A stretch of DNA of 64,000 bases from Candidatus Omnitrophota bacterium (GTDB taxonomy: Bacteria > Omnitrophota > Gorgyraeia > Zapsychrales > Zapsychraceae), in the NCBI GenBank assembly GCA_050250375.1, contig JBFWOS010000001.1:91346-155345 (forward strand), in the 5' to 3' direction. Under the pieces are notes generated by a model. That model searched no databases and was not told the DNA's origin. It saw only the letters and a list, made by a program, of their open reading frames with translations. The translations under genes and the position numbers were made by a program. Shown in pieces: positions 5,750-51,606 of this stretch. Position 1 is the first letter of the stretch. Each line of letters begins with the position of its first letter.

Positions 5750-5752
5750 AAA

Positions 5753-6505
5753 TCATATCTCAAACGATTCATATCGATGAAACACTTCATGATCTGTCGA
5801 GTCACAATGGATCGGTGTAATGGTGACATACTTGTTATTCAACGCGTATGTGTCGATCGAATTATTTTTATGTTTGATCGCGGTTTTCCCGGTCAGCCAG
5901 TAATACTCTTTCAAGTTCGGATCCTTGCATTTCTTGAACGTGCCGTGGATCGGTTCCAGGCATTGTTTGGTAAACTTGATGCCCTTGATTTGTGAAGACG
6001 GAAGATTCGGAACATTCAGGTTCAAAAATGTGCCGCTGGGCAGAGGGTTTTTCCTCATAAATTTAACCAGCTTTCCGGCGCACTGGGCGGCGTATGAAAA
6101 ATCCGGTTCGTTAAAAGTATCGAGCGATACGGCAATCGACGGGATCCCCATCAGGGCGCCCTCCCTGGCCCCGGCCACAGTCCCCGAATAAAAAACACTG
6201 CAGCCTTCATTGGACCCGAGGTTGATCCCGGACACCAGAAAATCAGGTTTCTTTTTATAAAGGACATCCACCGCGAACTTGACACAATCGGCCGGTGTCC
6301 CGCTGACCCCGTAACCGAAGAAATTCTTTCTGCGGTCCACGAGTTTCTGCCGGATCGGATGCGCCAGGGTAATCCCGTGCCCGACGGATGAACGTTCCGA
6401 GTCGGGAGCGACCACCTTGACCTTCCCTAATTTTTTGAGTTCCAGATAAACGGCGTAAATTCCCGGGGCGTAAATGCCGTCATCGTTCGTTAGTAATATG
6501 TCCAT
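5753..6505 (-). CDS. surE: 5'/3'-nucleotidase SurE
   Basis: MDILLTNDDGIYAPGI N-terminal signature of the SurE family. 250 aa. Confidence 0.88.
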   Translation of the reverse strand: MDILLTNDDGIYAPGIYAVYLELKKLGKVKVVAPDSERSSVGHGITLAHPIRQKLVDRRKNFFGYGVSGTPADCVKFAVDVLYKKKPDFLVSGINLGSNEGCSVFYSGTVAGAREGALMGIPSIAVSLDTFNEPDFSYAAQCAGKLVKFMRKNPLPSGTFLNLNVPNLPSSQIKGIKFTKQCLEPIHGTFKKCKDPNLKEYYWLTGKTAIKHKNNSIDTYALNNKYVTITPIHCDSTDHEVFHRYESFEI

Positions 6506-8853: not shown

Positions 8854-9747
8854 TTACATGTACCCGCTTACCCGTAACGTCTCAAGACCGCCGCCGTCTT
8901 CTTTGTCCTGGGCGCGCCCGGAACGTTCCGCAATATTCTTAAATTTTCCCGAACGTAATTCTTCGATGATGTCTTTGACATTCTTCGCGGTGGATTCCAC
9001 CGGTGTCGTGCAGGGAAAACAGCCTAACGAACGGTAACGTTTGCCTTCACCGCGGTCAAAATACAATCCGGTGATGGGGATATTCTCACGGTCGATGTAT
9101 TCCCAGATATTCAGTTCCGTCCAGTCCAGCAGAGGATGAATCCTCAAATGGGTGCCCGGCGCGAAATCGGTTTTAAACTGGTTCCATAATTCCGGAGGCT
9201 GGTCGCCGACATCCCAGTCGTTATTCCGGTCGCGCGGTGAGAAATAACGTTCCTTGGAACGGCTGCCTTCTTCGTCGGCCCTGACCCCCACGATGACTCC
9301 GGTGTACGGTTCAGTATTGTTGTCCACTTCGTATTCACCCTTTTCATGGTTCATCCGGTAACGGGTCCAATCCCCGGCCAGGGTATGTTTGAGCGCCTCG
9401 GTCTTTAACGCCTTGCAGCAGGAAATACGGTCAATGGCTCCGTCGGGAAATGTTTTTTTCGCGGCCAGGGCCTCTTTGTTCTGGCCGTAAACCATATTTA
9501 ATTTCCATTCCCGGGCCAGGCGGTCGCGGTATTCAATCATCTCGGGAATCTTGTAACTGGTATCAATATGCACCAGCGGAAACGGGACATGCCCGAAAAA
9601 CGCCTTTCTCGCGAGCCACAACAACACCGTGCTGTCCTTTCCAATGGACCAGAGCATGGCCAGGTTTTTAAATTCACGATAGGCTTCCCGCAGAATAAAG
9701 ACGCTTTGCGCCTCAATTTCATCCAATTTTGTCATTGTTTTAGACAT
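8854..9747 (-). CDS. cysD: Sulfate adenylyltransferase small subunit
   Basis: 297 aa, PAPS-reductase-fold ATP pyrophosphatase motif [14 protein letters not shown]-terminal LRVSGYM. Confidence 0.9.
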
Positions 9748-14018: not shown

Positions 14019-14780
14019 TTATAGTTTTACAATGGATAATTCCTGGACAGCCGCCGATAAGGTCTCTGAGGCAGAAGCTTCAATTTTCAGGTCAGCAATC
14101 CCGTCTAAGGGCGTTTCGGATAACGTAATGATGACCAGGGCCGCTCCGGCCCGTTTGGCCATCCGGGGAAGACTGGCGGCGGGTTCAACCACCAGCGTTG
14201 AACCAACCGCAATAAACAAATCACAATCGCCGCTGAACTGTACCGCTTGATCCAAAGTCCAAGGGTCAATCCTTTGACCAAAAGAAATCGTGTTTGGTTT
14301 TAAAAACCCGCTGCAATCCAGGCATATGGGAGCAGATTCACCATCTTTTAATCGTTGATAAACTTCTTGCCAGGGGAACAGTTTTCGGCAGGACAAACAA
14401 CTGACCTCACGGTTAGTCCCGTGTAATTCAATCACCCGATTCGGATGACTGCCGGCTAATTGATGCAGTCCGTCAATATTCTGCGTTATAACCGCTGTTA
14501 GCTTACCGGATTGTTCCATTTTTACAATAGAGTAATGCCCCGGATTCGGCACGGCTTTCACCAAAGACTCGTAGAGCTCCATCTTATAATTCCAGTATTC
14601 AACGCGTTTTTGATCGTCAGACAGAAACTCCTGGTAGGTTACCGGCGCGTGGCGCCCCCAAAAACCTCCTTTGCTGCGATAGTCACTGATTCCGCTTTCT
14701 GTGGAGATTCCGGCCCCGGTGAAAACGACTAATTTTTTAGATGTCTTGATTAAATATTTAAGGCGGGTTAATGCGTCCAA
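14019..14780 (-). CDS. cobB: NAD-dependent protein deacylase of the Sir2 family (CobB-like)
   Basis: VVFTGAGISTESGISDYR Rossmann motif, zinc ribbon CLSC...CLDC, catalytic H in LHG. Confidence 0.85.
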   Translation of the reverse strand: MDALTRLKYLIKTSKKLVVFTGAGISTESGISDYRSKGGFWGRHAPVTYQEFLSDDQKRVEYWNYKMELYESLVKAVPNPGHYSIVKMEQSGKLTAVITQNIDGLHQLAGSHPNRVIELHGTNREVSCLSCRKLFPWQEVYQRLKDGESAPICLDCSGFLKPNTISFGQRIDPWTLDQAVQFSGDCDLFIAVGSTLVVEPAASLPRMAKRAGAALVIITLSETPLDGIADLKIEASASETLSAAVQELSIVKL

Positions 14781-19557: not shown

Positions 19558-20112
19558 TTATATGGCCTTGCTCATTTTCCTTTTTTTCTTTCTTTTAAGC
19601 TTCGGCCAGGCATCTTCAATTAAAATAAATCCAACACATCGTTCGGTCCCGCAATTGCAAGGATGATCTTCGTGATCCTCCCACGAATAATTGTAATTAT
19701 ATGTAATTTCTTCACCTTTTTTTATGTCCTTAATCGCGATAATCCAGACATGTCCTTTAATAATTTCAGATTCGCAGTTGGGGTCACAGGAATGATTGAT
19801 GAAACGGGCCGTGTTGTAATCAAAATATCCATCCAGGTCGTAACGTTTGTTAAGTTCAAAAAGATAAACTGCTCCCATTTCCTCATTATCAGCGTTATTC
19901 TCAAGCGGTTTTTGAGCCCTTCGATCGGACTCCTTTTTTGTTACCTTCTCCCCCACATATTCAATGATCCGTGTTCCTTTTTTTATGTTTACACTCGCGT
20001 AAATTCCTGTTCCATGAATGGCCGATTTGCGAAGCTTTATGTACGGGCTGGTCATTTTTTTGATAGTCATGTAGATATCCCAATTTAATCGGTTAAAAAT
20101 ATTATCATACAA
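19558..20112 (-). CDS. SET-domain protein (putative protein lysine methyltransferase)
   Basis: 184 aa with RFINHSCDPNC (NHSCxPN SET signature), Y in EITYNY, and a post-SET Cys cluster CNCGTERC. Confidence 0.8.
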   Translation of the reverse strand: MYDNIFNRLNWDIYMTIKKMTSPYIKLRKSAIHGTGIYASVNIKKGTRIIEYVGEKVTKKESDRRAQKPLENNADNEEMGAVYLFELNKRYDLDGYFDYNTARFINHSCDPNCESEIIKGHVWIIAIKDIKKGEEITYNYNYSWEDHEDHPCNCGTERCVGFILIEDAWPKLKRKKKRKMSKAI

Positions 20113-22073: not shown

Positions 22074-23678
22074 CTAAAATCTGGCGGTAGCGCCGAAAGT
22101 AATAGATAGGGAATCCCAATTGACTTCATTTAGACGTTGTTTAGGAGTGCCCCCATTACTTAGAAAAAACTGGACAGTTCCTGGGTCCATTTCCCAGTCT
22201 TGGAGAACTAAACTTAATGATAACGACCACATTGAATTTATAAAATAGTCCCCGCCCCCCTCAAACACAATCCCACGTCCCTTATCCGAAATCATTTCAA
22301 AACTTCTCGGATTGACGAAATCATCCCTTAAATTCCAAGTGCCGTCGCCCACATAATCCGCGAAGTGATACTCAAAACGACCAAAACCACGCAACTTATT
22401 TTTTCGAGTTCTTCCAGACAACTCTAACCCGACCCACGGGCCATCCCATTGTGACCTGTAACGACTATCCAGTCCTGGAAAGGGTCCAAAATCCGGTATT
22501 GTCTGATTTCCATCCTGTATGACAAAGTCTTGTTTGTGCCTTGAATACCCGCCTAAAAATGTGACGGTCAATTTATCGACAAGAAAAATCGGGTCCGGGT
22601 TATCAACATAAAAACGCAAACCTCCGGCCAAAGAATAATCCCAGACATAACCATCATCGGACGAATTATTCGAACGGGAAAATTCGTCCGTACGATTGTC
22701 TCCATCATAATCAGAATCCTGATTATCTCCCTTAATAATAGAACCATACCCCGCTTTGGCATCAACCACAAAATGATTCAATAATATAAAATCAAATTTG
22801 GCTTTTGCTTCTACCATTTGTATATCCGACCAAGTTAATTCTGATATAATGTTTGGTGTGGCCGTTCCGGTCAGATCAGACGCAATATTAAAATCCAAAT
22901 CATCAACGCGGTAACCGATCGTCACCCGGGTATTTGTTTCTATCCCCGGTATACCCACCTTCTGGTCTTCCGATTTATAATTTAAATTGATTGATGGGAC
23001 CGCATTTTCCTTAAATGGGTACTGGTCATTTGTAACTTCAGCCATTTCGGCCCGTTCCAAATCTTCCAGGGTAACCGTTTTAATACTCGTATTATTGTCA
23101 GCGAACCGCTTAAAATTTCGATCAACATTGTCATAATTATAATAATTATGGGCATCCTTAATATGTTCAGCTGGTTCAGCCTGAAACACATTTTCTGATT
23201 TTTGGACAGATGATTTGTTTCCAAATATAGATGCTGCGGAATCTTTAACGGCCTCATCAGACAAAGCCACTTCAAATATTTCCCTTTTGGGAGTCTTAAC
23301 AACCGTTTGCCCGTCTCCATAAACGTATATGGGATCATCCAGTTCCACAAAACTGCTTGCAGTCAACTCATTATCGGTTTTGAACGCTGATTTCTTTTTA
23401 GGTGAAGATTTTGCAGTTTTCTCAATATATGGATTTGGTGCTTTTGGAGGAATATTGATTACTTTAGCTTGAGGAACGCGTTTTACAGGTTCAATGTCTT
23501 CATCCGTGGCTTCGGAGATAGAAACAAACCCCATTTTTTTTATACGTTCTTCCTGATCATTCTCAGCAGACCAAGATCCGGTAGCAGTAAAAAAAACAGC
23601 CAAAATGACTGTCATTTTGACAATAAAATACTTACACAGATTATTCATATTGAACATAGGGATATTGTGCCATTTCAA
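22074..23678 (-). CDS. Putative outer-membrane beta-barrel protein. The true start may be the internal MTVILAVFF.
   Basis: Signal peptide, alternating amphipathic beta-strand-like C-terminal half, C-terminal ...GATARF (terminal Phe typical of OMPs). Confidence 0.5.
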   Translation of the reverse strand: MKWHNIPMFNMNNLCKYFIVKMTVILAVFFTATGSWSAENDQEERIKKMGFVSISEATDEDIEPVKRVPQAKVINIPPKAPNPYIEKTAKSSPKKKSAFKTDNELTASSFVELDDPIYVYGDGQTVVKTPKREIFEVALSDEAVKDSAASIFGNKSSVQKSENVFQAEPAEHIKDAHNYYNYDNVDRNFKRFADNNTSIKTVTLEDLERAEMAEVTNDQYPFKENAVPSINLNYKSEDQKVGIPGIETNTRVTIGYRVDDLDFNIASDLTGTATPNIISELTWSDIQMVEAKAKFDFILLNHFVVDAKAGYGSIIKGDNQDSDYDGDNRTDEFSRSNNSSDDGYVWDYSLAGGLRFYVDNPDPIFLVDKLTVTFLGGYSRHKQDFVIQDGNQTIPDFGPFPGLDSRYRSQWDGPWVGLELSGRTRKNKLRGFGRFEYHFADYVGDGTWNLRDDFVNPRSFEMISDKGRGIVFEGGGDYFINSMWSLSLSLVLQDWEMDPGTVQFFLSNGGTPKQRLNEVNWDSLSITFGATARF

Positions 23679-26889: not shown

Positions 26890-27090
26890 TTAGGCTTTAA
26901 CAACGTTTGCGGCTTGCTCGCCTTTCGGGCCTTCAATGATCTCAAACTCTACTTCCTGCCCTTCCTCAAGCATTTTGTAGCCGTCTCCCTGAATCGCAGA
27001 AAAATGAACAAAGACATCTTTTCCTGATTCCGGTGTAATAAATCCGTACCCTTTTTGGTTGCTGAACCATTTGACTTTTCCTTTTACCAT
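26890..27090 (-). CDS. cspA: Cold-shock protein
   Basis: [18 protein letters not shown] with RNP1/RNP2 motifs. Two adjacent ATGs; the second has the better SD spacing. Confidence 0.9.
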
Positions 27091-28595
27091 CATGAACTCC
27101 TTAGTTGTTGTAGTGTTTTCCTCAATAAATCGAACTGGAACGTTTTCACTACAAAATCATCCGCTCCAGCCGACTTTGCATCTTGCAAATCATTGGGTTG
27201 CAGGGTCGAAGTGACCATAATTATCTTGGTCGTAAAATCTGGGATAGCCTTGATCTTTTTGCACAAATCGAAACTATCCACATCCGGAAAAAATGTATCC
27301 AGAATAATCAGCACCGGTTTTTCGGCCACGACCTTGTTATAGGCCTCCGAACCTTTGGACACAAACCCCAGGTTGACATACCCCAGATCTTTAAAAACTT
27401 TCGCCATGCCGATTTTGTCCTTTTCACTGCGATCAATCAATAAGACTTTATCCATGATCATTTCTGTTTGATCAGTTTCTTTATCGGCCCCTTTTGCCTT
27501 GGCCATGGCTGATTTCCTGATATTGGAAAACGGTGCGTCTTCACCAAACTTCAACGAATTCGGATATTTTGCATAATCATAAGCCGTTTCCTTCGAAATA
27601 ACTTCCTGAATAACTAAATCTGAAAGGCAACGCTCAAAGGTATGCGTGTCGGAATCTTCTTCGGAATCAAGCTGTCCTCTCAGCTCAAGAAATGCTCCGC
27701 GACGAATTAAGTTCCGGATGGATATCGTCGTTAACAATAGTTCAGTCGCCAGGATCCGTTCGGTTGAATTTTTTCGCGGGATCAAGGTCTGCGAGCAGAT
27801 CCCGATTAGGTTTCCGGCTAATTGGGCAGAAACCTGTTCACGATAACCGGAAGGATAAACGTCAATAATCCGGTTTAAGGTCTCCACCGCATCCGGGGCG
27901 TGCACCGTGGTTAACACCAAATGCCCGGTTTCAGCGGCAGTCAGAGCCATCGAGATGGCTTCATAATCACGGATTTCTCCAATAACAATAACATCCGGAT
28001 CCTGACGCAGGGAATATTTCAAAGCGCTGGCGAAAGTAGGCGTGTCAGCACCGACTTCCCGCTGGATGATCAGGCTTTTTTTCGATTTATGGGTATACTC
28101 AATCGGGTCTTCAATCGTGACAATCTTGCATTTTTCCGTGTTATTGATCATGTTGATGATATACGTTAACGTCGTACTTTTACCGCTTCCTGATGCTCCT
28201 GAAACAATAAACAAACCTTTCTTGTGATTCGCAATATCTTTAAGGGGCTCGGGTAAACCAAAACGCAAGATTGTGTCTATATTGAGAGGTGTAACACGAA
28301 TGGTCGAAGCCATATGCCCTTTTTCAAAATGGACATTGACCCGGAATTGATAATCACTGCGGTAAGCGTAGGAACTGTCCAGTTCCCGCTCCTGAACAAA
28401 CTTTTGCTGCTGCCTTTCTGTGAGCATCTGAAAAACCAGGCTCTTAATCATATCGTCGTTGAGAACCTCTTCTCCCAAGGCCTCCAAATCACCGTGGATC
28501 CGGAGTATCGGCGGGTTACCAACAACAAGATGCAGATCTGAAGCGCTCTTCAGAATAGCCGTTTCTAATAAATCGTCAATTTTCTTGAATTCCAT
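27090..28595 (-). CDS. PilT-type pilus retraction ATPase fused to a C-terminal receiver domain
   Basis: PilT N-terminus ([13 protein letters not shown]), Walker [12 protein letters not shown]. The last ~130 aa form a receiver (LLIDRSEKD...ILDTFFPD...VVKT). Confidence 0.85.
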
Positions 28596-35337: not shown

Positions 35338-35703
35338 TTATGAAATCACCTGTTCAATGGTATTAATCAACGTAAGAAAATCCTCCCGCATGGGGCAAAA
35401 ACACTCAATAAAATGTTCCTGCGCTTTTATCATTTCTTGCGGGGAAACCTGGTCGGCTAAAAGAATGATCCGTAATTGCGGACAGTTCATTCTGATCTTT
35501 TTTAATTTTCCATAAAGGGCTGTATCCGGGTATTCCTTATCAACTAAAAAAATATCCACGGGGTTAGTTTTTAAAACAACCCCGGCCTCATCCAAAGTAT
35601 GCACCTTCCTGCAAAAATAGCCAAAATTCGCCGCTTCCAGAACATCGATCAGCACTTGAGTTTCTTCGCAAATTTTTGATAAGAGCAGAATGGATTTATT
35701 CAT
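35338..35703 (-). CDS. Stand-alone atypical receiver-like domain (about 121 aa from MNKSILLL). The listed longer ORF would overlap the upstream gene by 100 nt.
   Basis: Receiver-like alpha/beta pattern ILLLSK...VDIFLVDKEYPD...KKIR...IILLAD. Phospho-Asp position is present but the N-terminal acidic pair is missing. Confidence 0.45.
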   Translation of the reverse strand: MNKSILLLSKICEETQVLIDVLEAANFGYFCRKVHTLDEAGVVLKTNPVDIFLVDKEYPDTALYGKLKKIRMNCPQLRIILLADQVSPQEMIKAQEHFIECFCPMREDFLTLINTIEQVIS

Positions 35704-36844: not shown

Positions 36845-37189
36845 CTATTGTGCGGGAGGTTGTTTAGTATAATCGATGGGATGTCCGTATTTTTTATAAT
36901 TTATTCCGACTGTATCCATATCTGTCATCAGTGGACCATGAAATCCAAACGGGGTTACTTCAAAAAAGGCATCCACCAGGTCTTTTTCAATAACGAGAGT
37001 TCGGTTACTTTTCTTAGCCATATCTTTCGCTTTCTTGGCAACGGGGATTTCAACCATCGGCCGTGCAAAAAACGGCATCTTGTTCAACATTTTCTCAAAC
37101 TTGACCATGGTCGCCTCTTCCCATTCGATCTTAGCGTTTTGTTCGTCTTTATTTTCCATATCCTTCCTTTCGGTCGTATTTACAGGCAA
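36845..37189 (-). CDS. Small protein with a PCP_red-like domain (similar to the C-terminal domain of protochlorophyllide reductase BchB)
   Basis: IEWEEATMVKFEKMLNKMPFFARPMVEIPVAKKAKDMA fits the W-EA...IP-F-R...E-A pattern of Pfam PCP_red. Confidence 0.45.
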   Translation of the reverse strand: MPVNTTERKDMENKDEQNAKIEWEEATMVKFEKMLNKMPFFARPMVEIPVAKKAKDMAKKSNRTLVIEKDLVDAFFEVTPFGFHGPLMTDMDTVGINYKKYGHPIDYTKQPPAQ

Positions 37190-37302: not shown

Positions 37303-37332
37303 CTGGCAATATTTAAGGACAATGAGTATAAT
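37303..37332 (+). promoter_or_regulatory. Candidate sigma70-type promoter upstream of the first TadZ-TadA fusion gene
   Basis: CTGGCA (4/6 match to TTGACA), 18-nt spacer, then a perfect TATAAT at 37327..37332, about 58 nt upstream of the ATG. Confidence 0.25.
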
Positions 37333-37389: not shown

Positions 37390-39558
37390 ATGGAATCCAG
37401 AGTAATCCCCATATTCAGCAATAAAGGCGGTGTCGGAAAAACGTTTGTCGCGGTTAACTTAGCGGCTACCCTCGCCCTGTTGAAACGCAAAGTTTTATTG
37501 CTCAATCTCGATCTCCAGGCCGGACATGATATGGCCATTAATTTGAATGTGACCCCGGAACAATCATTGGCCCATCTCATTCCCGAGATGAAAAAAACTG
37601 AACAGTTCAGTCTTGAAACAATCAAAAAATTCCTGGTTCCGCATTCATCCGGATTTGATTTCTTAACGGCCATCACCGACCCACAGCAAATCAACTCAAT
37701 CCATCCGGCCGATGTTAAAATATTCCTGAATAAAGTCAACGTCCATTACGATTTTATCATTGTCGATTTAGGCGTTTCGTTCAATGAGTTGGTAATCACT
37801 GTCCTCGATAATTCTGATGCGATCCTGCTCTTGGCCACACCGGATGTTCTGGCCGTCTATCAATTGGCCTGGTGTATTAAAACCCTGCAGGAAATGCATT
37901 TTTCACTGAAAACAGTAAAGCTGGTCCTCAACCGGGCAGAAAGCCAGGGCGGCGTCGGCTGGAAAGAAGTCCGGGCGGCCCTGGATATTGACATTATCGG
38001 ACGGATCCCCTCCGATGGGAAGGCCGTTGGAAAGGCCCTTGAATTGGGAATCCCGGCCGTTGAAGAAAATCCTCGGGGAACAATCGCGGACGGCTTTAAA
38101 AAATTAGCGGCTGAACTTTTCAAAAAAGATATTTATTTACCGAAGTCCGAGGCCAAACAGCGAAACATGCAGTCGGAAAAAATTGAAACCCTGGCCGCCC
38201 AGGACGCGATTGTTGAATTTAAGGAAGGTGAAACCAAAGAACCGCCCAAACAAGATGACATTTTCAAAAACGCCGACTATACCAAAATTAAAATTAGTAT
38301 TCAGAAAAAACTGATTGACCGTCTTGAGATGAATTCCCTGACACCCGAACATTTCACCGACCCTAAAAAAGCCCAAGAACTAAGAGAATCCGCCAAACAA
38401 TTGATCAATACTATCCTGTTGGAAGAAGGCGGGAAATATGCCTCCTCCCTGGAAATTCGTACCCGGACCGTAAATGAAATCGTTAAAGAAACGTTTGGGC
38501 TGGGGATCCTCGAGGAAATCATGGAAGACGTCAACGTCGAAGAAGTCATGGTCAACGGCAGCCAGGAAATATATATCGAGAAAAAAGGTGAAATCACCTT
38601 AACCGAACATAAGTTCATTTCTGACCAGCATCTCAGGGCTATTATTAACAGGATCATCGCGCCTCTCGGCCGGCGTCTGGACGAATCTTCTCCGATGGTC
38701 GACGCCCGACTTCAGGACGGTTCCCGGTTCAATGCGATTATTCCACCGGTCTCCTTATCCGGCCCATGTGTAACCATCCGGAAATTTGCCGCTGAAAAAC
38801 TGACGGTCGATCATATTGTCTATAAATTTAATACCCTGTCCGAACAGATGAACAATTTTCTGCATGCGTGTGTCCTGGGCCGGATGAATATCATTATCGC
38901 CGGAGGTACCGGTTCCGGAAAAACAACTCTTTTAAACGTCCTGTCTGAATTTATCCCGGACGATGAACGCATCATCACCATAGAAGACGCGGCCGAGTTA
39001 AGTCTGCAAAAAGAACATTGGTGCCGGCTGGAAGCGCGCCCGGCCAACGTCGAAGGCGTCGGTGAAATCTCCGTTCGCGATCTGTTCGTTAATACCTTGC
39101 GTATGCGGCCTGACCGTATTGTCATCGGTGAATGCCGGGGGCCGGAAGTATTGGATATGCTCCAGGCCATGAACACCGGCCATGACGGCTCTATGACCAG
39201 CCTTCACGCTAACTCGGCCCGGGATGTCCTCATCCGCATGAGTTCCATGATCCTTTTAAGCGGGATCGAACTGCCCATGCGGGCCATTAATGAAATGATT
39301 TCTTCGGCGATCAATATCATCGTCCACATGGCGCGTTATACGGATGGTTCGCGCAAAGTCACAGGGATCTCGGAAATCGTCGGCCTTGATAATGACAGTG
39401 AACTGGATCTTAAAGAAATCTTTTTTTTCAATCAAACCGGCCGCGATGAGTCGGGCGTCATCCACGGCCAGTTTCAGAATTCGAATTATATCCCCAAATG
39501 TGCCGATGAACTGATTAAAAAAGGGGTCAAAATCGATTTGTCCATGTTTAAATCTTAG
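37390..39558 (+). CDS. Fusion ATPase: N-terminal ParA/MinD-like (TadZ/CpaE-type) domain plus C-terminal CpaF/TadA VirB11-family secretion ATPase. Paralog 1.
   Basis: Deviant Walker A SNKGGVGKT at residues 9-17. C-terminal T2SS_E domain with GGTGSGKTTLLN, ITIEDAAEL and GHDGSMTSLHANS. Confidence 0.85.
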   Translation: MESRVIPIFSNKGGVGKTFVAVNLAATLALLKRKVLLLNLDLQAGHDMAINLNVTPEQSLAHLIPEMKKTEQFSLETIKKFLVPHSSGFDFLTAITDPQQINSIHPADVKIFLNKVNVHYDFIIVDLGVSFNELVITVLDNSDAILLLATPDVLAVYQLAWCIKTLQEMHFSLKTVKLVLNRAESQGGVGWKEVRAALDIDIIGRIPSDGKAVGKALELGIPAVEENPRGTIADGFKKLAAELFKKDIYLPKSEAKQRNMQSEKIETLAAQDAIVEFKEGETKEPPKQDDIFKNADYTKIKISIQKKLIDRLEMNSLTPEHFTDPKKAQELRESAKQLINTILLEEGGKYASSLEIRTRTVNEIVKETFGLGILEEIMEDVNVEEVMVNGSQEIYIEKKGEITLTEHKFISDQHLRAIINRIIAPLGRRLDESSPMVDARLQDGSRFNAIIPPVSLSGPCVTIRKFAAEKLTVDHIVYKFNTLSEQMNNFLHACVLGRMNIIIAGGTGSGKTTLLNVLSEFIPDDERIITIEDAAELSLQKEHWCRLEARPANVEGVGEISVRDLFVNTLRMRPDRIVIGECRGPEVLDMLQAMNTGHDGSMTSLHANSARDVLIRMSSMILLSGIELPMRAINEMISSAINIIVHMARYTDGSRKVTGISEIVGLDNDSELDLKEIFFFNQTGRDESGVIHGQFQNSNYIPKCADELIKKGVKIDLSMFKS

Positions 39559-39576
39559 ACCAAAAAAAGAATTCTT

Positions 39577-41739
39577 ATGAAAACAAAAGTCATTACATTC
39601 TGGAGCAACAAAGGCGGCGTTGGAAAAACATTTCTGGCGGTGAATACAGCCACCACATTGACCTTGTTAAAACACCGGGTCCTGCTGATGGAATTAAACT
39701 TTCAGTCCATCCATGCGATCGACAAAATGTTAAATCTCGTCAGCCGTTTCGGGCTCGCCAACCTGATGTCCCAGATCGAAACCCTGGATAATCCCGAAAT
39801 CATCAAAAAAGCCGTCTCCCCTCATTCCTGCGGGATGGATTATCTGCCGGTGGTCTCAAGTTCCACCCAGAATGCTGAATTTACAACCGCAAAAATAAAG
39901 GCTTTTTTTGAAAAGGCGTCAACTTTGTACGATTTTATTATTCTGGATGCCCGCCGCGCGCTCAGTGAAGGTCTCGTTTCCGTGATGCAAAATTCAAATC
40001 TGGTCGTGCTGATTGATACGCCTGAAAATTTGACCGTCAACAAATTTAAATGGTGCCTGTCCATGCTCAACAGCATCCATATTCCCAAACCGATGATCAA
40101 GCTGGTCATCAACCGGTCCGCGTCCCGGGGGACTGTTGATCCGAAATTATTAAAAGAACAACTGGGCCTGGACATCCTGGGAGAAATCCCTTCGGATGGA
40201 AAAACGGTAGGTTTAGCCCTCAACAGCTGCATCCCCTGCGTCCTCGATAGTCCGAAAAGTCCGGTCACCCAGGCCATCGTGAATTTTGCGAGAAAATTTG
40301 AGAATGAGGCACTATATCCTGAAGTCACTATTCAGGAAAACGCGCTGATTTCCGGTAAGATTCAGGACCAGGACGGCTCGCTGAAAAAATTCGGGGTAAC
40401 CCGCTCCAAAGATGACAATGCTTTTATATTCAACCAGGATGATGAGGAAATCCTTCTGAAAAAGAAGACTCATGAAAAACTGGTTAAAGAAATGAATATT
40501 GTTAACCTGGGGCCAGAGTCCTTTACGGATGAAAAACTAATGAAGGAACTTCGTGAAAAAGCCACGGGTATCACCGATAAACTGCTGACCCAGGAATATT
40601 CAAAGTTGACCAAGGATGACACCATCCGCGCCCGTTTGACGAACGAAATTGTCAGCGAGGCCTTCGGTCTTGGGCCGCTCGAAGAATTTCTGGAGGACAC
40701 GGACGTCTCGGACATCATGGTCAACAGCCAAAGACAAACCTTTATTGAAAAGAAAGGTAAAATCATTAAAACCGGCGCAAAATTTTCGTCTGAAATGCAG
40801 ATGCGAAGCATCATCGACCGGATCATTGCTCCGTTAGGCCGCCGGATTGACGAATCAACTCCCATGGTCGACGCGCGCTTGCAGGACGGTTCGCGTTTTA
40901 ACGCGCTTATCCCCCCGCTCTCTTTAACGGGGCCTATGATCACGATCCGTAAATTCGGGCGTGAACGCCCAAAAGTCGATGACCTCCTGAACAAATACAA
41001 TAGCTTAAATGACAATATGCGTGTATTTCTTGAAGCCGCAGTCCGCGGAAGAAAAAATATTATCGTTTCCGGAGGAACAGGTTCAGGAAAAACAACCCTT
41101 CTCAACATTATCTCAACATTCATTCCGGATAAAGAACGGATCGTCACGATTGAAGACGCGGCTGAGTTAAGAATCAACAAATCCCACTGGATCCGGCTGG
41201 AATCGCGTCCGCCCAACATTGAAGGTAAAGGGCAGATCCACATCCGGACCCTGTTCATGAACAGCCTGCACATGCGCCCGGACCGTATTATCGTCGGGGA
41301 ATGCCGGGGGTCTGAGGTCATCGACATGCTCCAGGCCATGAATACGGGACATGACGGGTCTATGACGACCCTGCACGCCAACTCCACCAAAGACGTGCTG
41401 GTCCGCATGAGTTCCATGATTCTGCTGGCCGGTGTTGAATTACCCATTCGCGCGATTTACGAAATGATTTCCACCGCCCTGGACCTCATTGTCCATATCA
41501 ACCGGTTCAGTGACGGGACCCGTAAGATTGTCGAAATCACGGAAGTCGCCGGCCTGACGAAAGACCACTCCCTCCAATTAGGCGATATTTTCAAATTTGA
41601 ACAAAAGGGAATGGATGAAGGCGGCAAGATTCTCGGAGAATATGTGGCGACCGGTTATGTGCCTAAATGTTATGAGGAATTCAAAACGATCGGGATTGAT
41701 CTCGATAAAAACATATTCACTCCCCCCGCAAAAAAATAA
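39577..41739 (+). CDS. Fusion ATPase: ParA/MinD-like domain plus CpaF/TadA ATPase. Paralog 2, about 55% identical to paralog 1.
   Basis: SNKGGVGKTFLAVN, then GGTGSGKTTLLN, VTIEDAAEL and GHDGSMTTLHANS. Same architecture and length as the upstream gene. Confidence 0.85.
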   Translation: MKTKVITFWSNKGGVGKTFLAVNTATTLTLLKHRVLLMELNFQSIHAIDKMLNLVSRFGLANLMSQIETLDNPEIIKKAVSPHSCGMDYLPVVSSSTQNAEFTTAKIKAFFEKASTLYDFIILDARRALSEGLVSVMQNSNLVVLIDTPENLTVNKFKWCLSMLNSIHIPKPMIKLVINRSASRGTVDPKLLKEQLGLDILGEIPSDGKTVGLALNSCIPCVLDSPKSPVTQAIVNFARKFENEALYPEVTIQENALISGKIQDQDGSLKKFGVTRSKDDNAFIFNQDDEEILLKKKTHEKLVKEMNIVNLGPESFTDEKLMKELREKATGITDKLLTQEYSKLTKDDTIRARLTNEIVSEAFGLGPLEEFLEDTDVSDIMVNSQRQTFIEKKGKIIKTGAKFSSEMQMRSIIDRIIAPLGRRIDESTPMVDARLQDGSRFNALIPPLSLTGPMITIRKFGRERPKVDDLLNKYNSLNDNMRVFLEAAVRGRKNIIVSGGTGSGKTTLLNIISTFIPDKERIVTIEDAAELRINKSHWIRLESRPPNIEGKGQIHIRTLFMNSLHMRPDRIIVGECRGSEVIDMLQAMNTGHDGSMTTLHANSTKDVLVRMSSMILLAGVELPIRAIYEMISTALDLIVHINRFSDGTRKIVEITEVAGLTKDHSLQLGDIFKFEQKGMDEGGKILGEYVATGYVPKCYEEFKTIGIDLDKNIFTPPAKK

Positions 41740-42465: not shown

Positions 42466-43242
42466 TTATTGATCAATCGTTTTGAGCGTTTGGATGAGAA
42501 ATCCGTAATCGGGAGTTTTAATCACCGAATCGTAACCACCAGCCCGCTTGACTCCCAGGACATCAATCGCTGAAACATGTCCGGTGATAATAATGATGTT
42601 GGCCCTGTTTTCATCCAACTGGCTGATCAAGCGGCAAAGTTCAATCCCCTGAATATCGGGAAGGATTGTGTCCAGGATGATAATATCCGGATTCTCCGTC
42701 CTGGCCTTTTCCAGGCCTTCCTGACCGCTGGAGGCTACACTGAATTTCGTAAACCCCTCGCTTTTGAGGGTGTCTTTCATCAAAAACTGATCGCCTTCAT
42801 TATCATCCACGATCAGAATTTTCACTTTATCTTTGTCCGTAATTTTATATTGGCCGATTTTGTCCATCTCGACCGATTCAATCGCCCCTAAAATCTCGGA
42901 AAAATCGCAGGGTTTCTGTAAAAAACCATCGGCCATATCAAGAACCTTGTTGTGATCCTTTAGATAATCCCTGTCATAGCCGGTGATGACAATAATCCTC
43001 GGTTGAAACGAACCGCTGTATTTATTTCTGATATTCTGGATGAGTTCAAACCCATCCAGTTTCGGTATGTGCAGATCGGTTAAGATCACATCCGGCTGAT
43101 TTTCCTGGATGATTTCCCAGGCCTGCTCACCATCCAGGGCGCTTAAGACTTCATAATCATGCGAGGCGATTTTCTGAACCATCATCTCAAGGACGATATC
43201 TTCATCATCAATCACCAAAACTTTTGCCAACTTTTTATTCAT
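42466..43242 (-). CDS. Response regulator with two tandem receiver domains and no output domain
   Basis: Two receiver units (VLVIDDEDI...ILTDLHIPKLDG and ILIVDDNEGD...IILDTILPDIQG). Confidence 0.85.
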   Translation of the reverse strand: MNKKLAKVLVIDDEDIVLEMMVQKIASHDYEVLSALDGEQAWEIIQENQPDVILTDLHIPKLDGFELIQNIRNKYSGSFQPRIIVITGYDRDYLKDHNKVLDMADGFLQKPCDFSEILGAIESVEMDKIGQYKITDKDKVKILIVDDNEGDQFLMKDTLKSEGFTKFSVASSGQEGLEKARTENPDIIILDTILPDIQGIELCRLISQLDENRANIIIITGHVSAIDVLGVKRAGGYDSVIKTPDYGFLIQTLKTIDQ

Positions 43243-45574: not shown

Positions 45575-47470
45575 TTAATTAAATTTTACCAGAGAAAATA
45601 TAATGCTTAACAGCAATATTCTCCCAAAGCTTGACGTGGTCAGAAAAAAAGTCACCCTGATAAACTGATAAACAATCAGCATGACTGGGCCGTTCATCTT
45701 TTTATGTTTAAACACTAAATTTTGTGCGTCATAATACATCCAGTTGAGATTGGTGATCCGGTTTTCATTCAAAGTTTGAAAATACTGCTGCGACCCGGGT
45801 AACGGTGACAACAAGCCGAAGATCGTAAAATATGGATTTAATTTCAAACAGAATTTCCACATCTTAAAAATATTTTTATAGGAATCCGTTTCAAAACCAA
45901 AAATAAAATGGGCCTTGATCCTGATTCCAGCCTCTTTAATTTTTCTTGCGTATTCGAGATACTTCCCCCCCATCGTGAACTTCCCACCCATCGCCTTGTC
46001 GGACTCTCCCTGGGTAATTTCAAAACCAATTAAAAACTGTTTGCATCCGCTGTCCCTGGCCAGTTCCAGGGTCTGTGTATTTTTCGCGATATCAATCGTG
46101 CATTGCGTGACCCAATTCATTTTTAATGGTTTGATGGCCTCAAAAAGTTCACGGGCATACGCCGGATCATTGTAAATGTTATTATCGATAAACTCGACAG
46201 TACGGTATTTCTTCCTGACAATTTTCAACAATTCAACCAGCTGAAAAACCGGTTTTCGCCGGAGCCTTCCCCCGCTGATTCCCGGAATAGTACAAAAATG
46301 GCACTTAAATTTACAGCCTCGGGTCGTTTCTAGAAAATTTTTAACAATATGCGGTGGTGATTTTAACAATTCCTGATGAACGTCGTCATAAAAGTCATCA
46401 ATCGACCCGCCGGAATAAACTTTTTTCATCTCCCCTTTTTCAAAATCGTTCACAATTTCTTTCCAGACCCCCTCACATTCACCAATAACAACACTGTCAC
46501 AAAACTCCAATGCTTCTTTTGGCAGAAACGTGACATGGGGGCCGCCCATGACTACTTTTGATCCGCATTTTCTAAAATCTTTAGCAATTTTATAGGCCTC
46601 TAAACAATTCGACGTAAAACAGGTAATCGCGACAAGCTTGCCCGGCTTATAAAAACTCCTGTTCCAGACTTTCGTATTGAATTCCCTGAAATGATAATCT
46701 TTGGGCGTTAAGGCTTTTAAAACAACAAATAAAGGCGGATAACAATTCACAACCCGCATGGCCAGCCAGCTAAGCAGCCCCCGATTGATCGGGTTAATCA
46801 TATAAAGTTCTTTTTCATATTCAAATGATTTCCTGATAGACGGATGTTGATTGATCATAGCATCGACAATAAAGATAAATGACCACAGATTTAAAAAAAC
46901 TTCCACGAACCCCAGCACATGGATTAATTTAAATTTCTGAACGTCAAAAAGCCAAATCGACACAACTACACCCAATTGGACTAACTGTAGACAAGTCAAA
47001 ATAAGGATCGACTTCCAATCACCGGAGAATAGTTGTCCGGTGGATTTGATCATTTTTAAATATTTTTTCCGCACGATCAGGCCGGCAAAAATATATAGAA
47101 CAAAGACATTTAGAAAAAAATTCACAATGGTTAAGGGCAGAACGACACCCTTAAAATACAACAAAAAATTAAAAATATGTACGCCGATATAAATCAGCAG
47201 ATACTGCCACCAATACCGGTAAGCGTTCTTTTTAAACTGGGATATGGTTACGATAATTTCCTGGCCGCTCACCAACTCAACAAGGGACCCACAAATACCC
47301 GCCATAAAAAAGACAACAAACAAAGCTTTAAGAAAGACCGAAAATGTCCCCAAAAAAGGCAAAAAAACATTGTCATTAACAATATCCAGGAGGTACATAA
47401 GGATGACGAACTGAAAGTTCGCACAGAGGATCGAAAAGGACCGGGAAATGCCTGTAAATGAGTTATTCAT
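45575..47470 (-). CDS. B12-binding radical SAM enzyme with an N-terminal polytopic membrane domain of about 215 aa
   Basis: About 6 TM segments, then a B12-binding-like domain (KLVAITCFTSNCLEAYKIAKDFRKCGSKVVMGGPHVT) and the radical SAM cluster motif TTRGCKFKCHFC (Cx3Cx2C). Hydrophobic C-terminal tail. Confidence 0.8.
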   Translation of the reverse strand: MNNSFTGISRSFSILCANFQFVILMYLLDIVNDNVFLPFLGTFSVFLKALFVVFFMAGICGSLVELVSGQEIIVTISQFKKNAYRYWWQYLLIYIGVHIFNFLLYFKGVVLPLTIVNFFLNVFVLYIFAGLIVRKKYLKMIKSTGQLFSGDWKSILILTCLQLVQLGVVVSIWLFDVQKFKLIHVLGFVEVFLNLWSFIFIVDAMINQHPSIRKSFEYEKELYMINPINRGLLSWLAMRVVNCYPPLFVVLKALTPKDYHFREFNTKVWNRSFYKPGKLVAITCFTSNCLEAYKIAKDFRKCGSKVVMGGPHVTFLPKEALEFCDSVVIGECEGVWKEIVNDFEKGEMKKVYSGGSIDDFYDDVHQELLKSPPHIVKNFLETTRGCKFKCHFCTIPGISGGRLRRKPVFQLVELLKIVRKKYRTVEFIDNNIYNDPAYARELFEAIKPLKMNWVTQCTIDIAKNTQTLELARDSGCKQFLIGFEITQGESDKAMGGKFTMGGKYLEYARKIKEAGIRIKAHFIFGFETDSYKNIFKMWKFCLKLNPYFTIFGLLSPLPGSQQYFQTLNENRITNLNWMYYDAQNLVFKHKKMNGPVMLIVYQFIRVTFFLTTSSFGRILLLSIIFSLVKFN

Positions 47471-48564: not shown

Positions 48565-51500
48565 TTAAAATTTCTTAAAAATGGAATCGAGGACTCCTTC
48601 AATAAGGATCTGCTCCGGGGCTTTTTCCGGTTGTGCCGGCGGAGCCGTTTCTCCCGACGGCGCAGTCTGTTTGATGCCTTGGGCCGGTTGCGTCCCGCCT
48701 GATGCCGGGGTTTCCGGGCCGGAAGCCGGCGCCTTTTCTCCCGAATCAAATGTCTTATTGAACAGTTTCTGCAATTCCTCACGGCCCTTATTTTTAAGCG
48801 CGTTTGCCGCCAGATCTTTCAAGTCAGGAAAAAATTGGACGTTGGGACCTTTCCCGGTAATCAGCAGCGGGAACCGGATCCTCTTTTGTTCATCGTAGAG
48901 GTATTCCAGCTGCGGCGCCGCCTGAGCCATATACTGCGACATATCCTGCGGAATAATAAATATCCCGTTAAACGTATAACGCTGGTCGAATCCGACCTGG
49001 CCAGTTCCAGTAAAGAGAAAATTGTCCGCGGTCAGATTAAATGATTTGATCTTGACCAGGCTGTTTTCTATGCCGATTGTCATAGTCGCGTCGGTAATGA
49101 CCGTATCTTTCTGGTTAAGCCGTGTTTTTAAATCCGGCGGAAGAATGGACTCGATCGTCTGCCGGAAATTGGAGATAATCTTGATATTATCAAGAACCAA
49201 CGCCAGGATGTTGATATCGGTGAGCCGCCCTTCCTTAAACGCCAGGTTCCCCTGCCCCGTCAGGGCCTCCATCATCACGTTCGGTTCAAAGCCGTGCCCC
49301 TGGATCGCAAGCTCTCCGTTAATAACACCCTGAACCTTAACCGCGAAATCCTTTTGGTTGATGATTTCAGCCAGACTTAAATCGATCAATTTCGTGTCGG
49401 CCTGATAACGCTGTTCCTTCACAAAATCAGTCAAGGACCCTTTGAGCGATAAACTGCCCTTCCCGAGTTTAAGGACGATTTCCTCCATCGTCACATTATT
49501 CCCCGCGAACTGAATCTTGGCCTGGACCGGATCGACCGGCGCGTTTAATTCCTTGAGCACGACCCTGCCGTTTTTAAATTCCATGGTCCCGTTCACCGGT
49601 CCGAGGCCTGACGGCCCGGCCGTCAATGAACTTAAGGCGACGGAGGCCTGCCCTTTTAACTCGACCGGTAACGGCGCGTCTTTAAGCGCCGCGATGCTTT
49701 GTTTCAGCCGGTCTAACGATAACGCCGATAAATCCGTCTGGAAATTCAGCCCGTCGATCTTGATCTCCTGGGTCTGCTGGTTCAACGCGGCCTTTGTCTC
49801 AAACGAAAAATTCGGCCGGTCACTCAGGTAAGCCAGTTCACCCTGCACACTGAACGGCCCGCCGTTCAGCGAAAAATCTTTGATGTTAAGTTTGGCCTGC
49901 GACACATCAAGACCGACACCCGGAGCGATTTCCTTAAATGACACCTGCCCCCCGGATAAAGACACATCCATGGACAGCGATTCAAGTCCGGCAGGTCCGG
50001 CCGCGGCATCCTTGATCGATACCCGGCATTTTCCGGCCAGCTTGTCCGGCAGCGGGACATCTTTGAGCGCGGGCGCGCTTTCCTTGATTTGCGCAAGCGA
50101 AAACCCGGCCAGGTCGGTTTCAAACGTCGTATCCCTCAGGCGCACTGATTGTTTTTCCAGATTAAATACGCCGTAGCCGTCAAGCGAGACATTCGGCACC
50201 GGATTCATAACACCGGCTTTTAAAGAAAAAGAAAACGGTCCGTTCAGCGAAAAATCTTTTAACGCCAGGTTTATGCCCTGCACAGACAACGCCGCCCCGC
50301 TCTTGTCCTTAAGGCTCACCGCTCCATTGGTCAAACCGAAGTTCATATTAAGAGAAGTCAACCCGGCAGGCCCCGCAGAAAATTCATTGAGGTCCAGACG
50401 GATATTTCCCGTCAGCTTATCCGGAAGCGGCTGGTCCTTGAGCATCGGAACGGCAGACTTCAGCTGGTCCAGCGAATAAGAAGACAGGTCGGTGGTCACG
50501 GACACTCCGCTTAAGCGGACGCTCTGTGACATCATGTCAAACAGGGCCTTGCCCTGGACTGTGATATTCGGCTGATCGTTCAGATACGCGGCAGAGACAT
50601 TCCATTGAAACGGATTGTTTAACGAAAATCCGGTCACACCGACGTTGATCTTTGAGGCCGCAAACGATACGCCGGGCGCGGCTTCTTTGATCGCAATCTT
50701 TCCGTTTTCAAATTTGACATCGGCGTTGACGGACGTCAGTCCCTGCGGTCCGGCCGCAAGTTCTTTGACCGTTAGTGTAAACTGACCGCCCAGCACTTCC
50801 GGAAAAGGGACATTTTGGGGGATGACCGGAAGCTGACGGATCGCGTCAAAAGAGATCTTGTCCAAATCTGTTTTAAGGCTGAATTGTGAAAGGGTAACCG
50901 CCGACGTTTTCGGGTCAAGCCGGACCTTGCCTTCCACCCGGATATTTTCCTGCTGGCCGAAAACCGCCGCGCCCAAAGAGACCTTAAACGGCGCGCTTAA
51001 TGAAAATCCGTTAACCATCAGGGATGCCTGCGTCACGCTCAGCTTCATTTCAGGATCGAAGGTGCGGTCAATGACGGTAATTTCGCCCCCGGTCATTTCA
51101 ACGGTATCCACAAACACAGCCGGCAAATCCGCCGGCTTTGCCGCAGGGGATGACGGGCCTGATCCCCCGGTCCCGGGCTGCGAAGGATTTTCCGCCGGAG
51201 GAGTTCCGATCGTCTGGGCATTGATCTGTCCGTCTTTATCCCGAATAATGGTTACCCGCGGTGATTTGATCTGCACCCGGGTGACCGCGATCTCCTTCTT
51301 CATAATATACGACAACACGTTCACACTGACAAAGACTTCATCGACACTGAAAAAATCGCCTGTTCCGAAAGCGGAACTTTCACTGATCGTCACTCCGTTA
51401 ATCGCGAAGCGTACGCCCTGGCTGATGGAAGGTTTTAAATCAATCGTCTTAAAATCAACCGTGCGGTTAAGCGCCGAATTCGCGGCCGCGACAATCTGGG

Positions 51501-51606
51501 TTTTATAACGGTTAACGTCCAGTGTTTTCAGGAAGATAAAAACACCCGCCAACAGCAGGACAAACAGGATTAAAACTACAAGGATAATTCGTTTAAGGAT
51601 TTTCAT
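48565..51606 (-). CDS. AsmA-family protein (TamB/AsmA-like envelope lipid-transfer protein), 1013 aa
   Basis: N-terminal TM anchor MKILKRIILVVLILFVLLLAGVFIF. A long beta-rich body with about 4 internal repeats of ~105 aa. Low-complexity P/A/S/G tail. Confidence 0.72.
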   Translation of the reverse strand: MKILKRIILVVLILFVLLLAGVFIFLKTLDVNRYKTQIVAAANSALNRTVDFKTIDLKPSISQGVRFAINGVTISESSAFGTGDFFSVDEVFVSVNVLSYIMKKEIAVTRVQIKSPRVTIIRDKDGQINAQTIGTPPAENPSQPGTGGSGPSSPAAKPADLPAVFVDTVEMTGGEITVIDRTFDPEMKLSVTQASLMVNGFSLSAPFKVSLGAAVFGQQENIRVEGKVRLDPKTSAVTLSQFSLKTDLDKISFDAIRQLPVIPQNVPFPEVLGGQFTLTVKELAAGPQGLTSVNADVKFENGKIAIKEAAPGVSFAASKINVGVTGFSLNNPFQWNVSAAYLNDQPNITVQGKALFDMMSQSVRLSGVSVTTDLSSYSLDQLKSAVPMLKDQPLPDKLTGNIRLDLNEFSAGPAGLTSLNMNFGLTNGAVSLKDKSGAALSVQGINLALKDFSLNGPFSFSLKAGVMNPVPNVSLDGYGVFNLEKQSVRLRDTTFETDLAGFSLAQIKESAPALKDVPLPDKLAGKCRVSIKDAAAGPAGLESLSMDVSLSGGQVSFKEIAPGVGLDVSQAKLNIKDFSLNGGPFSVQGELAYLSDRPNFSFETKAALNQQTQEIKIDGLNFQTDLSALSLDRLKQSIAALKDAPLPVELKGQASVALSSLTAGPSGLGPVNGTMEFKNGRVVLKELNAPVDPVQAKIQFAGNNVTMEEIVLKLGKGSLSLKGSLTDFVKEQRYQADTKLIDLSLAEIINQKDFAVKVQGVINGELAIQGHGFEPNVMMEALTGQGNLAFKEGRLTDINILALVLDNIKIISNFRQTIESILPPDLKTRLNQKDTVITDATMTIGIENSLVKIKSFNLTADNFLFTGTGQVGFDQRYTFNGIFIIPQDMSQYMAQAAPQLEYLYDEQKRIRFPLLITGKGPNVQFFPDLKDLAANALKNKGREELQKLFNKTFDSGEKAPASGPETPASGGTQPAQGIKQTAPSGETAPPAQPEKAPEQILIEGVLDSIFKKF
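49450..51040 (-). repeat. Intragenic tandem repeats of about 315 nt (~105 aa), about four copies, inside the AsmA-family gene. Coordinates approximate.
   Basis: Protein-level repeats FSLN(G)PF...DL(A/S)(G/S)FSL(A/D)Q(I/L)K(E/S)(S)AP(A/M)LKD(V/Q)PLPDKL(A/T)G...AAGPAGL(T/E)SL recur about every 105 residues. Confidence 0.6.

Follow-up and report, generated by a model that had tools for sequence, protein, structure and literature searches.

The P1-P2 gene pair and its products

Two adjacent genes on the forward strand, here called P1 and P2, are described in a 64-kb stretch of contig JBFWOS010000001.1 from a Candidatus Omnitrophota bacterium; this whole stretch is referred to as the window. As judged from their sequences, P1 and P2 are paralogous TadZA-type proteins, in which a receiver-less TadZ/CpaE-like ATPase domain is joined by a flexible linker to a complete CpaF/TadA pilus motor that is predicted to be hexameric. 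The genes and their parts are as follows:

37303..37332 (+): promoter-like site, CTGGCA, 18-nt spacer, TATAAT (10/12 matches), ~58 nt 5' of the P1 start; weak evidence
37390..39558 (+): P1, TadZA-type fusion ATPase paralogue 1, 722 amino acids (aa); open reading frame (ORF) and its translation
37390..38124 (+): TadZ/ParA/MinD-like ATPase domain of P1, with the deviant Walker A motif SNKGGVGKT (K12, K17) and Walker B D126
38290..39555 (+): CpaF/TadA motor part of P1, with Walker A GGTGSGKTT, Asp box ERIITIEDAAEL, Walker B DRIVIGECRG and His box TGHDGSMTSLHANS, all intact
39559..39576 (+): P1-P2 spacer, 18 nt, with no terminator-like site in a terminator scan of the + strand
39577..41739 (+): P2, TadZA-type fusion ATPase paralogue 2, 720 aa, architecture as in P1
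39577..40311 (+): TadZ/ParA/MinD-like domain of P2, Walker A intact
40477..41736 (+): CpaF/TadA motor part of P2, catalytic motifs all intact

P1 and P2 are probably co-transcribed as one bicistronic operon. In promoter and terminator scans of the region, the numbers of sites were not above the expectation from shuffled sequence.

In P1, the ParA/MinD (TadZ)-like domain (residues ~1-245) and a variable linker (~246-300) precede a helical N-region with the N- and C-terminal domains of CpaF/TadA (~301-722). Pfam assigns AAA_31/CbiA/ParA to residues ~4-245 and T2SSE to residues ~365-650 of each protein, with E-values for PF00437 of 3e-58 and 3e-55, and the P-loop of the common SNKGGVGKT motif begins at residue 10. 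The C-terminal 430 residues match the solved structures of Caulobacter CpaF (8RKD, 9E24) with E = 1e-102, followed by archaeal GspE (1e-42), FlaI (1e-35) and VirB11 (1e-31), so that CpaF is the closest characterised or solved relative of the motor part. The N-terminal 250 residues match the structures of ParA, Soj, FleN and MinD with E-values from 1e-17 to 1e-12. An initial annotation had proposed both the fused architecture and the tandem paralogy of the two ORFs, and these proposals were upheld; its estimate of ~55% mutual identity was too high, the full-length values being 49% (BLASTP) and 48% (MAFFT alignment). P1 is identical to NCBI entry MGE0269347.1 and P2 to MGE0269348.1 as well as to the cluster representative P0121; NCBI labels both proteins 'MAG: ATPase, T2SS/T4P/T4SS family [Candidatus Omnitrophota bacterium]'.

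The best NCBIfam model, TIGR03819 (TadA-family conjugal-transfer-associated ATPase), scored 319 and 312 bits against a cut-off of 373, in a library without a model specific for canonical CpaF. The PilT, GspE and PilB models stayed far under their cut-offs; P1 and P2 are not members of the PilT family, since TIGR01420 requires 319.1 bits and they reach 53.0 and 53.9. The MinD models reached 64-74 bits, far under cut-offs of 202-213. Features by which the separate proteins are usually recognized are also missing, as the N-terminal atypical receiver domain of TadZ/CpaE is absent from P1 and P2, the pair does not lie between a secretin gene and tadA as tadZ/cpaE does in a tad locus, and it is not co-oriented with two platform genes, tadB and tadC, the arrangement that Ellison et al. 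2019 used as a criterion for CpaF/TadA (PMC6920026).

Genomic context of the pair

The initial annotation had noted that no Tad machinery lies within 10 kb of the pair, and this observation can be extended to the whole window. Virtually every larger ORF of the 64 kb was scanned with Pfam and NCBIfam, and no secretin, RcpC, T2SSF/platform protein, Flp pilin or prepilin peptidase was detected. When 15 proteins from the Tad locus of a relative were compared with the window by tblastn, the two ATPases were the only matches. The same arrangement is found in related genomes. Seven contexts were compared, namely the window, L001, L002/L003, L004, L088, L089 and L090, and in all of them the gene for a P1 protein or a close relative of it (60-93% identity) has a P2 orthologue 9-21 nt downstream. 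Tad genes are absent from all seven, within 8-10 kb of the pair in the six related loci and throughout the window.

A conserved neighbourhood, which might have pointed to partner proteins, did not emerge, because the pair is flanked by unrelated housekeeping genes that vary by lineage. Recurring flank genes in these contexts are limited to one for an RlmI-like methyltransferase and, in four contexts, to a small ORF with similarity to PCP_red/DUF2621, which in the window is the following feature:

36845..37189 (-): small ORF, 114 aa, weak PCP_red/DUF2621 similarity (Pfam E = 0.005 and 0.013)

Its counterparts of ~95-114 aa lie at 9417..9743 in L001, 9500..9808 in L002 and 14401..14682 in L004. 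The ORF is upstream of the pair and divergent in the window, L001 and L002 and downstream in L004, whereas L088-L090 lack it next to the pair. A loose functional association with the pair is possible. Its earlier description as similar to the C-terminus of BchB corresponds to the weak PCP_red match alone. Genes for B12-binding radical SAM proteins also recur near the pair, at 45575..47470 (-) in the window and at 3873..5783 and 17332..19251 in L004, together with the RlmI-like methyltransferase gene. This recurrence most likely represents residual synteny rather than a functional link.

Two further neighbours were considered as partners and rejected. The cassette upstream of the pair, comprising a receiver-like ORF, a 369-aa ORF and a DUF1653 gene (confirmed by Pfam), is conserved only in the closest relatives. 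It had been suggested that its stand-alone receiver replaces the receiver domain that these TadZ-like domains lack. This idea is not supported by the compared genomes: the cassette is limited to L001 and, in part, L002, the pair in L004, L088, L089 and L090 has no such cassette next to it, and the TadZA proteins encoded within Tad loci likewise have no receiver domain. The receiver character of the ORF itself (35338..35703) is only partly borne out, since its PF00072 match has an E-value of no better than 0.035, whereas its 35%-identical orthologue in L002 has a recorded Response_reg match. The 176-aa ORF downstream of the pair has counterparts only in L001 and L002 and no family match.

The genes for single-copy TadZA proteins are found in a very different setting. 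In all 12 loci examined (L005-L012 and L093-L096) they sit in one type of Tad-like locus, between a secretin and a DUF192 gene. The order is PpiC-type rotamase, RcpC, secretin (with a TonB_C domain), TadZA, DUF192, a cytoplasmic protein of 566-827 aa, and pilins with Flp-like or class-III signal sequences, which are followed by a run of pilin-like ORFs of ~100-140 aa and then by large proteins. Because the N-terminal half of the locus-type TadZA lies between the secretin and tadA positions, the TadZ origin of this domain is supported. Among the loci examined, the secretin with a TonB_C domain and the leading PpiC-type rotamase are an unusual composition for a tad locus, and in L006, L007, L094 and L095 the locus lies downstream of gyrB-gyrA. 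The conserved gene for the 566-827-aa protein follows TadZA-DUF192 at 12927..15410 in L005, 13205..14905 in L007, 12591..14426 in L006 and 12943..14748 in L094. Its product has no predicted transmembrane segment and a weakly HTH_32-like N-terminus, and the L005 copy contains a long repeat tract rich in Pro, Glu, Ala and Val. A fused TadB/TadC platform was considered for this protein and rejected, because transmembrane segments are missing and the weak HTH_32 match is the only one; it could be a scaffold or organiser.

Both settings occur together on one contig of 3,360,633 bp, in which the pair (P0009, P0127) lies at ~2.61 Mb and a third TadZA (P0070) in a Tad-like locus at ~1.30 Mb. Therefore, in that lineage the pair is additional and not a displaced motor. 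This observation bears on two explanations for the isolated position of the pair. The first is a split canonical system, in which the Tad locus of the genome has no ATPase of its own and the pair is its sole motor. We regard this as highly improbable, since the one relative with both regions visible has an intact locus copy, TadZA occupies its place in 12 of 12 Tad-like loci, and P1 and P2 separate from the locus copies with 100% bootstrap support. The second, close to the earlier suggestion that the pair is the engine of an uncharacterised system, holds that P1 and P2 drive a separate, unrecognised envelope machine for secretion, DNA uptake or another filament, the parts of which are encoded elsewhere. 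The consistent distance of the pair from Tad genes in all seven contexts speaks for such a machine, but a conserved neighbour that could be a partner was not found, and a known compatible machine is present in the related genome. With a fused ATPase already in the Tad-like locus of that genome, an uncharacterised system need not be invoked and accessory motors are the simpler reading. We consider a separate machine rather unlikely.

Distribution of the TadZA fusion

With P1 and P2 as queries, 168 cluster representatives were retrieved as the homologue set. At least 156 of them are proteins of 690-780 aa with an N-terminal KGGxGK[ST] motif and a TadA Walker A motif, and almost all come from Omnitrophota. 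Where a source gives a name, it is 'Flp pilus assembly complex ATPase component TadA', 'ATPase, T2SS/T4P/T4SS family', 'CpaF' or 'MinD'. The novelty that the initial annotation saw in the fusion is thus ruled out, as the architecture is common in databases, already annotated, and published as TadZA for Bdellovibrio bacteriovorus (bioRxiv 10.64898/2026.07.08.737194). The TadZA fusion is a known kind of protein and the normal ATPase of the Tad (type IVc) locus in Omnitrophota. The stand-alone P1-P2 pair and the fixed change in switch I of P2 described below are apparently undescribed, as no description was found in the literature.

Species-representative genomes were scanned as a sample, and fusions were distinguished from gene pairs by inspection of the ORFs. 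Single-ORF fusions among the listed genome matches belong to Omnitrophota (including two metagenome-assembled genomes (MAGs) labelled Planctomycetales), to one 'Deltaproteobacteria' MAG and to Bdellovibrionales. A wide spread of the fusion over many phyla was considered and rejected, because the listed matches outside these groups nearly all consist of two separate neighbouring genes, cpaE (~400 aa) and cpaF (~450 aa). This agrees with the earlier statement that CpaE and CpaF are separate proteins in canonical loci. No locus of the P1/P2 type was found among the matches listed from the species-representative genomes. A few TadZA proteins of the Omnitrophota type are deposited as 'Candidatus Bathyarchaeia archaeon' or 'uncultured Planctomycetales' (P0063; L011, L012); these are probably binning or labelling errors, because the loci have the Omnitrophota Tad gene order.

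The occurrence of Tad complexes in Omnitrophota, with TadB and TadC grouping with those of Bdellovibrionales, was reported by Seymour et al. 2023 (PMC10066038), in which we found no mention of a fused ATPase or of extra copies.

Evolution of P1 and P2

The P1 clade comprises 18 and the P2 clade 21 sequences, each with 100% bootstrap support, and beside these matching numbers the sizes of their source contigs also pair up. In neighbour-joining trees with 14 sampled sequences each for P1 and P2 and 27 for the locus clade, all three groups were monophyletic in 100 of 100 bootstrap replicates, and together they excluded a more basal locus clade of Omnitrophota (L009, L010, L012), again in 100 of 100. 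Support for the branching order among the three was divided (P1 with the locus clade in 53 replicates, P2 with the locus clade in 46, P1 with P2 in 1). Neither paralogue showed a preference for the locus TadZA of its own lineage. Together with the monophyly of the clades, this indicates that the triplication is old.

Each paralogue is nearer to the locus copies than to its neighbour: P1 shares 55% and P2 57% identity with P0070, compared to 48-49% between P1 and P2. More generally, locus TadZA proteins (e.g. P0070, P0088, P0110 and P0029) are 51-59% identical to P1 and 51-57% identical to P2. Within clades, the motor domains are conserved at 74-84%, and the linker is the least conserved segment and differs from clade to clade, with a within-clade identity of 0.27-0.30 in P1 and P2 versus 0.43 in the locus clade. 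For the separate machine discussed above, these data are ambivalent. The age and distinctness of the P1 and P2 clades, their own fixed substitutions and the highly divergent linkers would fit it, but the conservation of the motor domains and the overall identity of 55-57% to the locus copy argue against it.

Between the window and L001, dN/dS, the ratio of nonsynonymous to synonymous substitution rates, is 0.056 for P1 and 0.032 for P2, with dS near saturation, and it is similarly low in the TadZ-like and TadA parts of both genes. Both genes are under strong purifying selection. These values are also relevant for the proposal that P1 and P2 merely back up the locus TadZA, redundantly or in a particular niche and without a distinct mechanism, as in the rcpA2-tadA2 module of Bdellovibrio. 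P1 and P2 agree with the locus copy in architecture and in having their motifs intact, the pair is found, by best matches, in a minority of clusters (about 20, versus at least 127 of the locus type), and the Bdellovibrio module provides a precedent for dispensability. Nonetheless, the dN/dS of 0.03-0.06 and the conservation down to ~60% identity argue for a selected, non-redundant role, and the clade-fixed substitutions of P2 indicate functional divergence. A mere back-up thus appears very unlikely; if it applied, the pair would be a matter of ordinary genome annotation.

Catalytic residues and the switch I change in P2

The catalytic residues of the motor domain, namely the Walker A lysine K511, the Asp-box glutamate E532, the Walker B residues D575 and E581 and the two His-box histidines H598 and H606, show no variation across the P1, P2 and locus clades. 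K12 and K17 of the deviant Walker A motif in the TadZ-like domain are also invariant in all three clades. A clear difference is found in switch I. At position 41, the equivalent of MinD D40, an Asp is present in 127 of 127 locus copies and 18 of 18 P1 sequences, and an Asn in 21 of 21 P2 sequences. At position 39, which corresponds to MinD D38, all 21 P2 sequences have a Glu, so that the DxD of switch I is changed to ExN (E39, N41). Consequently, the MinD/ParA signature represented by K11, K16, D38 and D40 of Escherichia coli MinD is complete in the P1 clade (D39/D41), but not in P2 (E39/N41). The replacements specific for the P2 clade are D39E, D41N, A44S, M48I, A49D, R50K, D140Q and Q158K, and they cluster in switch I and the following helix (A44S, M48I, A49D, R50K).

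The MinD variant D40A and the Soj variant D44A bind ATP and form dimers, but do not hydrolyse it. By analogy, the positioning domain of P2 is predicted to be impaired in hydrolysis, though still able to bind ATP and to dimerise. The region of MinD that matches the P2-specific changes lies at its dimer and partner interface. The P1 protein of the window deviates from its own clade in that residue 39 is an Asn (37504..37506; NLD instead of the clade consensus DLD), the sole case in 18 P1 sequences. With N39 in P1 and E39/N41 in P2, therefore, both paralogues of the window genome have altered acidic residues in switch I.

These substitutions raise the possibility that P1 and P2 build one obligate hetero-oligomeric motor, either as an alternating 3:3 hexamer or as rings or protomers bridged by TadZ-like heterodimers with one hydrolysis-dead site. 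Such a motor would be compatible with the strict adjacency and short spacers in all contexts, the matching cluster numbers of P1 and P2, the fixation of D41N and D39E in P2 only with retention of the Walker A lysines, and the clustering of the P2-specific changes in switch I and the next helix. However, both motor domains have all catalytic motifs intact and do not require a mixed ring, and PilT and PilU, which provide the closest analogy, form separate homohexamers. We consider an obligate hetero-oligomer rather unlikely; it would refine rather than exclude a role of the pair as accessory motors, as proposed below.

Comparison with known Tad and pilus ATPases

The closest described protein is the 'atypical TadZA fusion ATPase' of Bdellovibrio bacteriovorus, an essential Tad motor whose gene shares an operon with tadB at the main tad locus and whose TadZ-plus-linker region binds the polarity hub RomR (10.64898/2026.07.08.737194). 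It resembles P1 and P2 in being a fusion without a receiver domain, a feature common to all Omnitrophota and Bdellovibrionales fusions compared, and a Bdellovibrionales homologue (L022) is collinear with P1 over the full length at 38% identity (E = 7e-159). In contrast to the single-copy gene in tad locus 1 of Bdellovibrio, the window has two extra tandem copies away from tad genes. The locus TadZA proteins of Omnitrophota agree with P1 and P2 in length, architecture and catalytic motifs, but they are encoded by a single gene among rotamase-RcpC-secretin and DUF192 plus Flp-like pilin genes, whereas P1 and P2 are an unlinked pair.

In canonical systems (Caulobacter, Aggregatibacter, Burkholderia, Cupriavidus) the gene order cpaE-cpaF is the same as the domain order of the fusion. 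The N-terminal domain of P1 is 27% identical to residues 150-388 of canonical CpaE from Cupriavidus (E = 4e-28), and because this alignment starts at CpaE residue 150, the fusion lacks the CpaE receiver domain. Unlike P1 and P2, CpaE and CpaF are two proteins, and CpaE carries a receiver and an atypical P-loop (KGGAGTS in Cupriavidus) instead of the full KGGVGKT. The fusion also lends independent support to the view that CpaE/TadZ and CpaF/TadA are direct physical partners, for which cryo-tomography of Caulobacter had provided no more than a suggestion (PMC12637624).

Additional Tad-type ATPase genes outside the main locus have a precedent in Bdellovibrio, which has unlinked tadA paralogues in an rcpA2-tadA2 module and as an isolated tadA3 (10.64898/2026.07.08.737194). 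Like the window pair, they are found in an organism that attaches to prey or host. They differ in being named tadA, with the hybrid ascribed to tad locus 1, in that one is accompanied by a secretin paralogue, and in the absence of a tandem pair. The association of tadA2 with its own secretin paralogue also illustrates that Tad ATPase paralogues can serve other modules, which would be in line with a separate machine driven by P1 and P2.

In type IVa pili, pilT and pilU are adjacent paralogous ATPase genes that are unlinked to the assembly genes and provide extra motors beside the extension ATPase. The likeness to P1 and P2 is in arrangement only, because P1 and P2 are not PilT-family proteins and carry a TadZ-like domain.

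Proposed role as accessory Tad motors

CpaF is normally the sole, bifunctional motor of Tad pili, and Tad systems are listed as having no retraction ATPase (PMC6920026; PMC12637624). Against this background we tentatively favour, with a confidence that falls slightly short of even, the reading that P1 and P2 are accessory motors of a Tad pilus, possibly acting in partnership. P1 and P2 would dock onto a Tad pilus platform that is encoded elsewhere in the genome and give it a second motor mode beside the locus TadZA, which might be a dedicated retraction motor, a high-force motor or one that is differently localised or regulated. By analogy with the interaction between Bdellovibrio TadZA and RomR, the TadZ-like domain and the linker would probably set the place and timing of motor engagement. 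In this scheme, the TadZ-like domain of P2, with its Walker A lysines kept and the catalytic aspartate lost (D41N), should bind ATP and dimerise while hydrolysing it poorly. D41N and the invariable pairing of the two genes jointly suggest that P1 and P2 are partners through their TadZ-like domains. A more specific version, in which P1 and P2 form a dedicated second Tad motor, e.g. for retraction or high force, via an asymmetric TadZ-like heterodimer with the P2 site ATP-locked by D41N, is in our view distinctly unlikely.

Several points weigh against a role as accessory Tad motors. The co-presence of the pair and a locus TadZA is documented for a single related genome. No tadB/tadC platform gene (T2SSF) that could supply the docking partner was identified in the 10 kb around the locus TadZA. 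P1 and P2 show no hallmark of a retraction motor (53-54 bits versus the PilT cut-off of 319), and their motor domains contain no degenerate catalytic site, as a fixed hetero-hexamer might. Finally, rcpA2-tadA2 of Bdellovibrio is dispensable and differently expressed, and 'accessory or Tad-unrelated functions' were suggested by its authors (10.64898/2026.07.08.737194).

The accessory motor reading gains interest from the biology of the phylum. Omnitrophota are ultra-small and probably host-dependent, and the Tad complex is one of the main candidates for their attachment or predation device (PMC10066038). A conserved and strongly selected extra TadZA pair would offer a concrete case of Tad motor specialisation, and a specialised second motor would be noteworthy because the accepted picture of Tad pili has a single bifunctional motor and lacks a retraction ATPase. 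The dedicated second motor, if real, would make this system the first of the Tad (type IVc) class in which an accessory motor is specialised.

Other genes in the window

A further pilus-related gene, which was missed in the initial annotation, is located at 27090..28595 (-). It encodes a type IVa pilus ATPase of the PilT/PilU family (TIGR01420, 385 bits versus a cut-off of 319) with a C-terminal response-regulator receiver domain, and L001 and L002 have it in a syntenic position, ~9 kb upstream of their P1-P2 pair. At 42466..43242 (-), between the 176-aa ORF and the RlmI-like methyltransferase gene, lies a gene for a protein of two receiver domains. The 88%-related locus L001 has no such gene at this point, so that it was either inserted recently or lost from the relative.

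Two larger genes have matches related to the cell envelope. The 1013-aa product of 48565..51606 (-) combines AsmA/DUF748/YhdP-like N-terminal matches with a T2SSN (GspN)-like segment and is probably an envelope lipid-transport or assembly protein, and the 533-aa product of 22074..23678 (-) has a strong match to the 'Protochlamydia outer membrane protein' family (Pom, PF17251; E = 1e-52). In addition, this small-genome bacterium encodes a SET-domain protein (19558..20112 (-); E = 6e-27) and a Sir2-family deacetylase (14019..14780 (-)), chromatin-type modifiers that fit a host-associated lifestyle.

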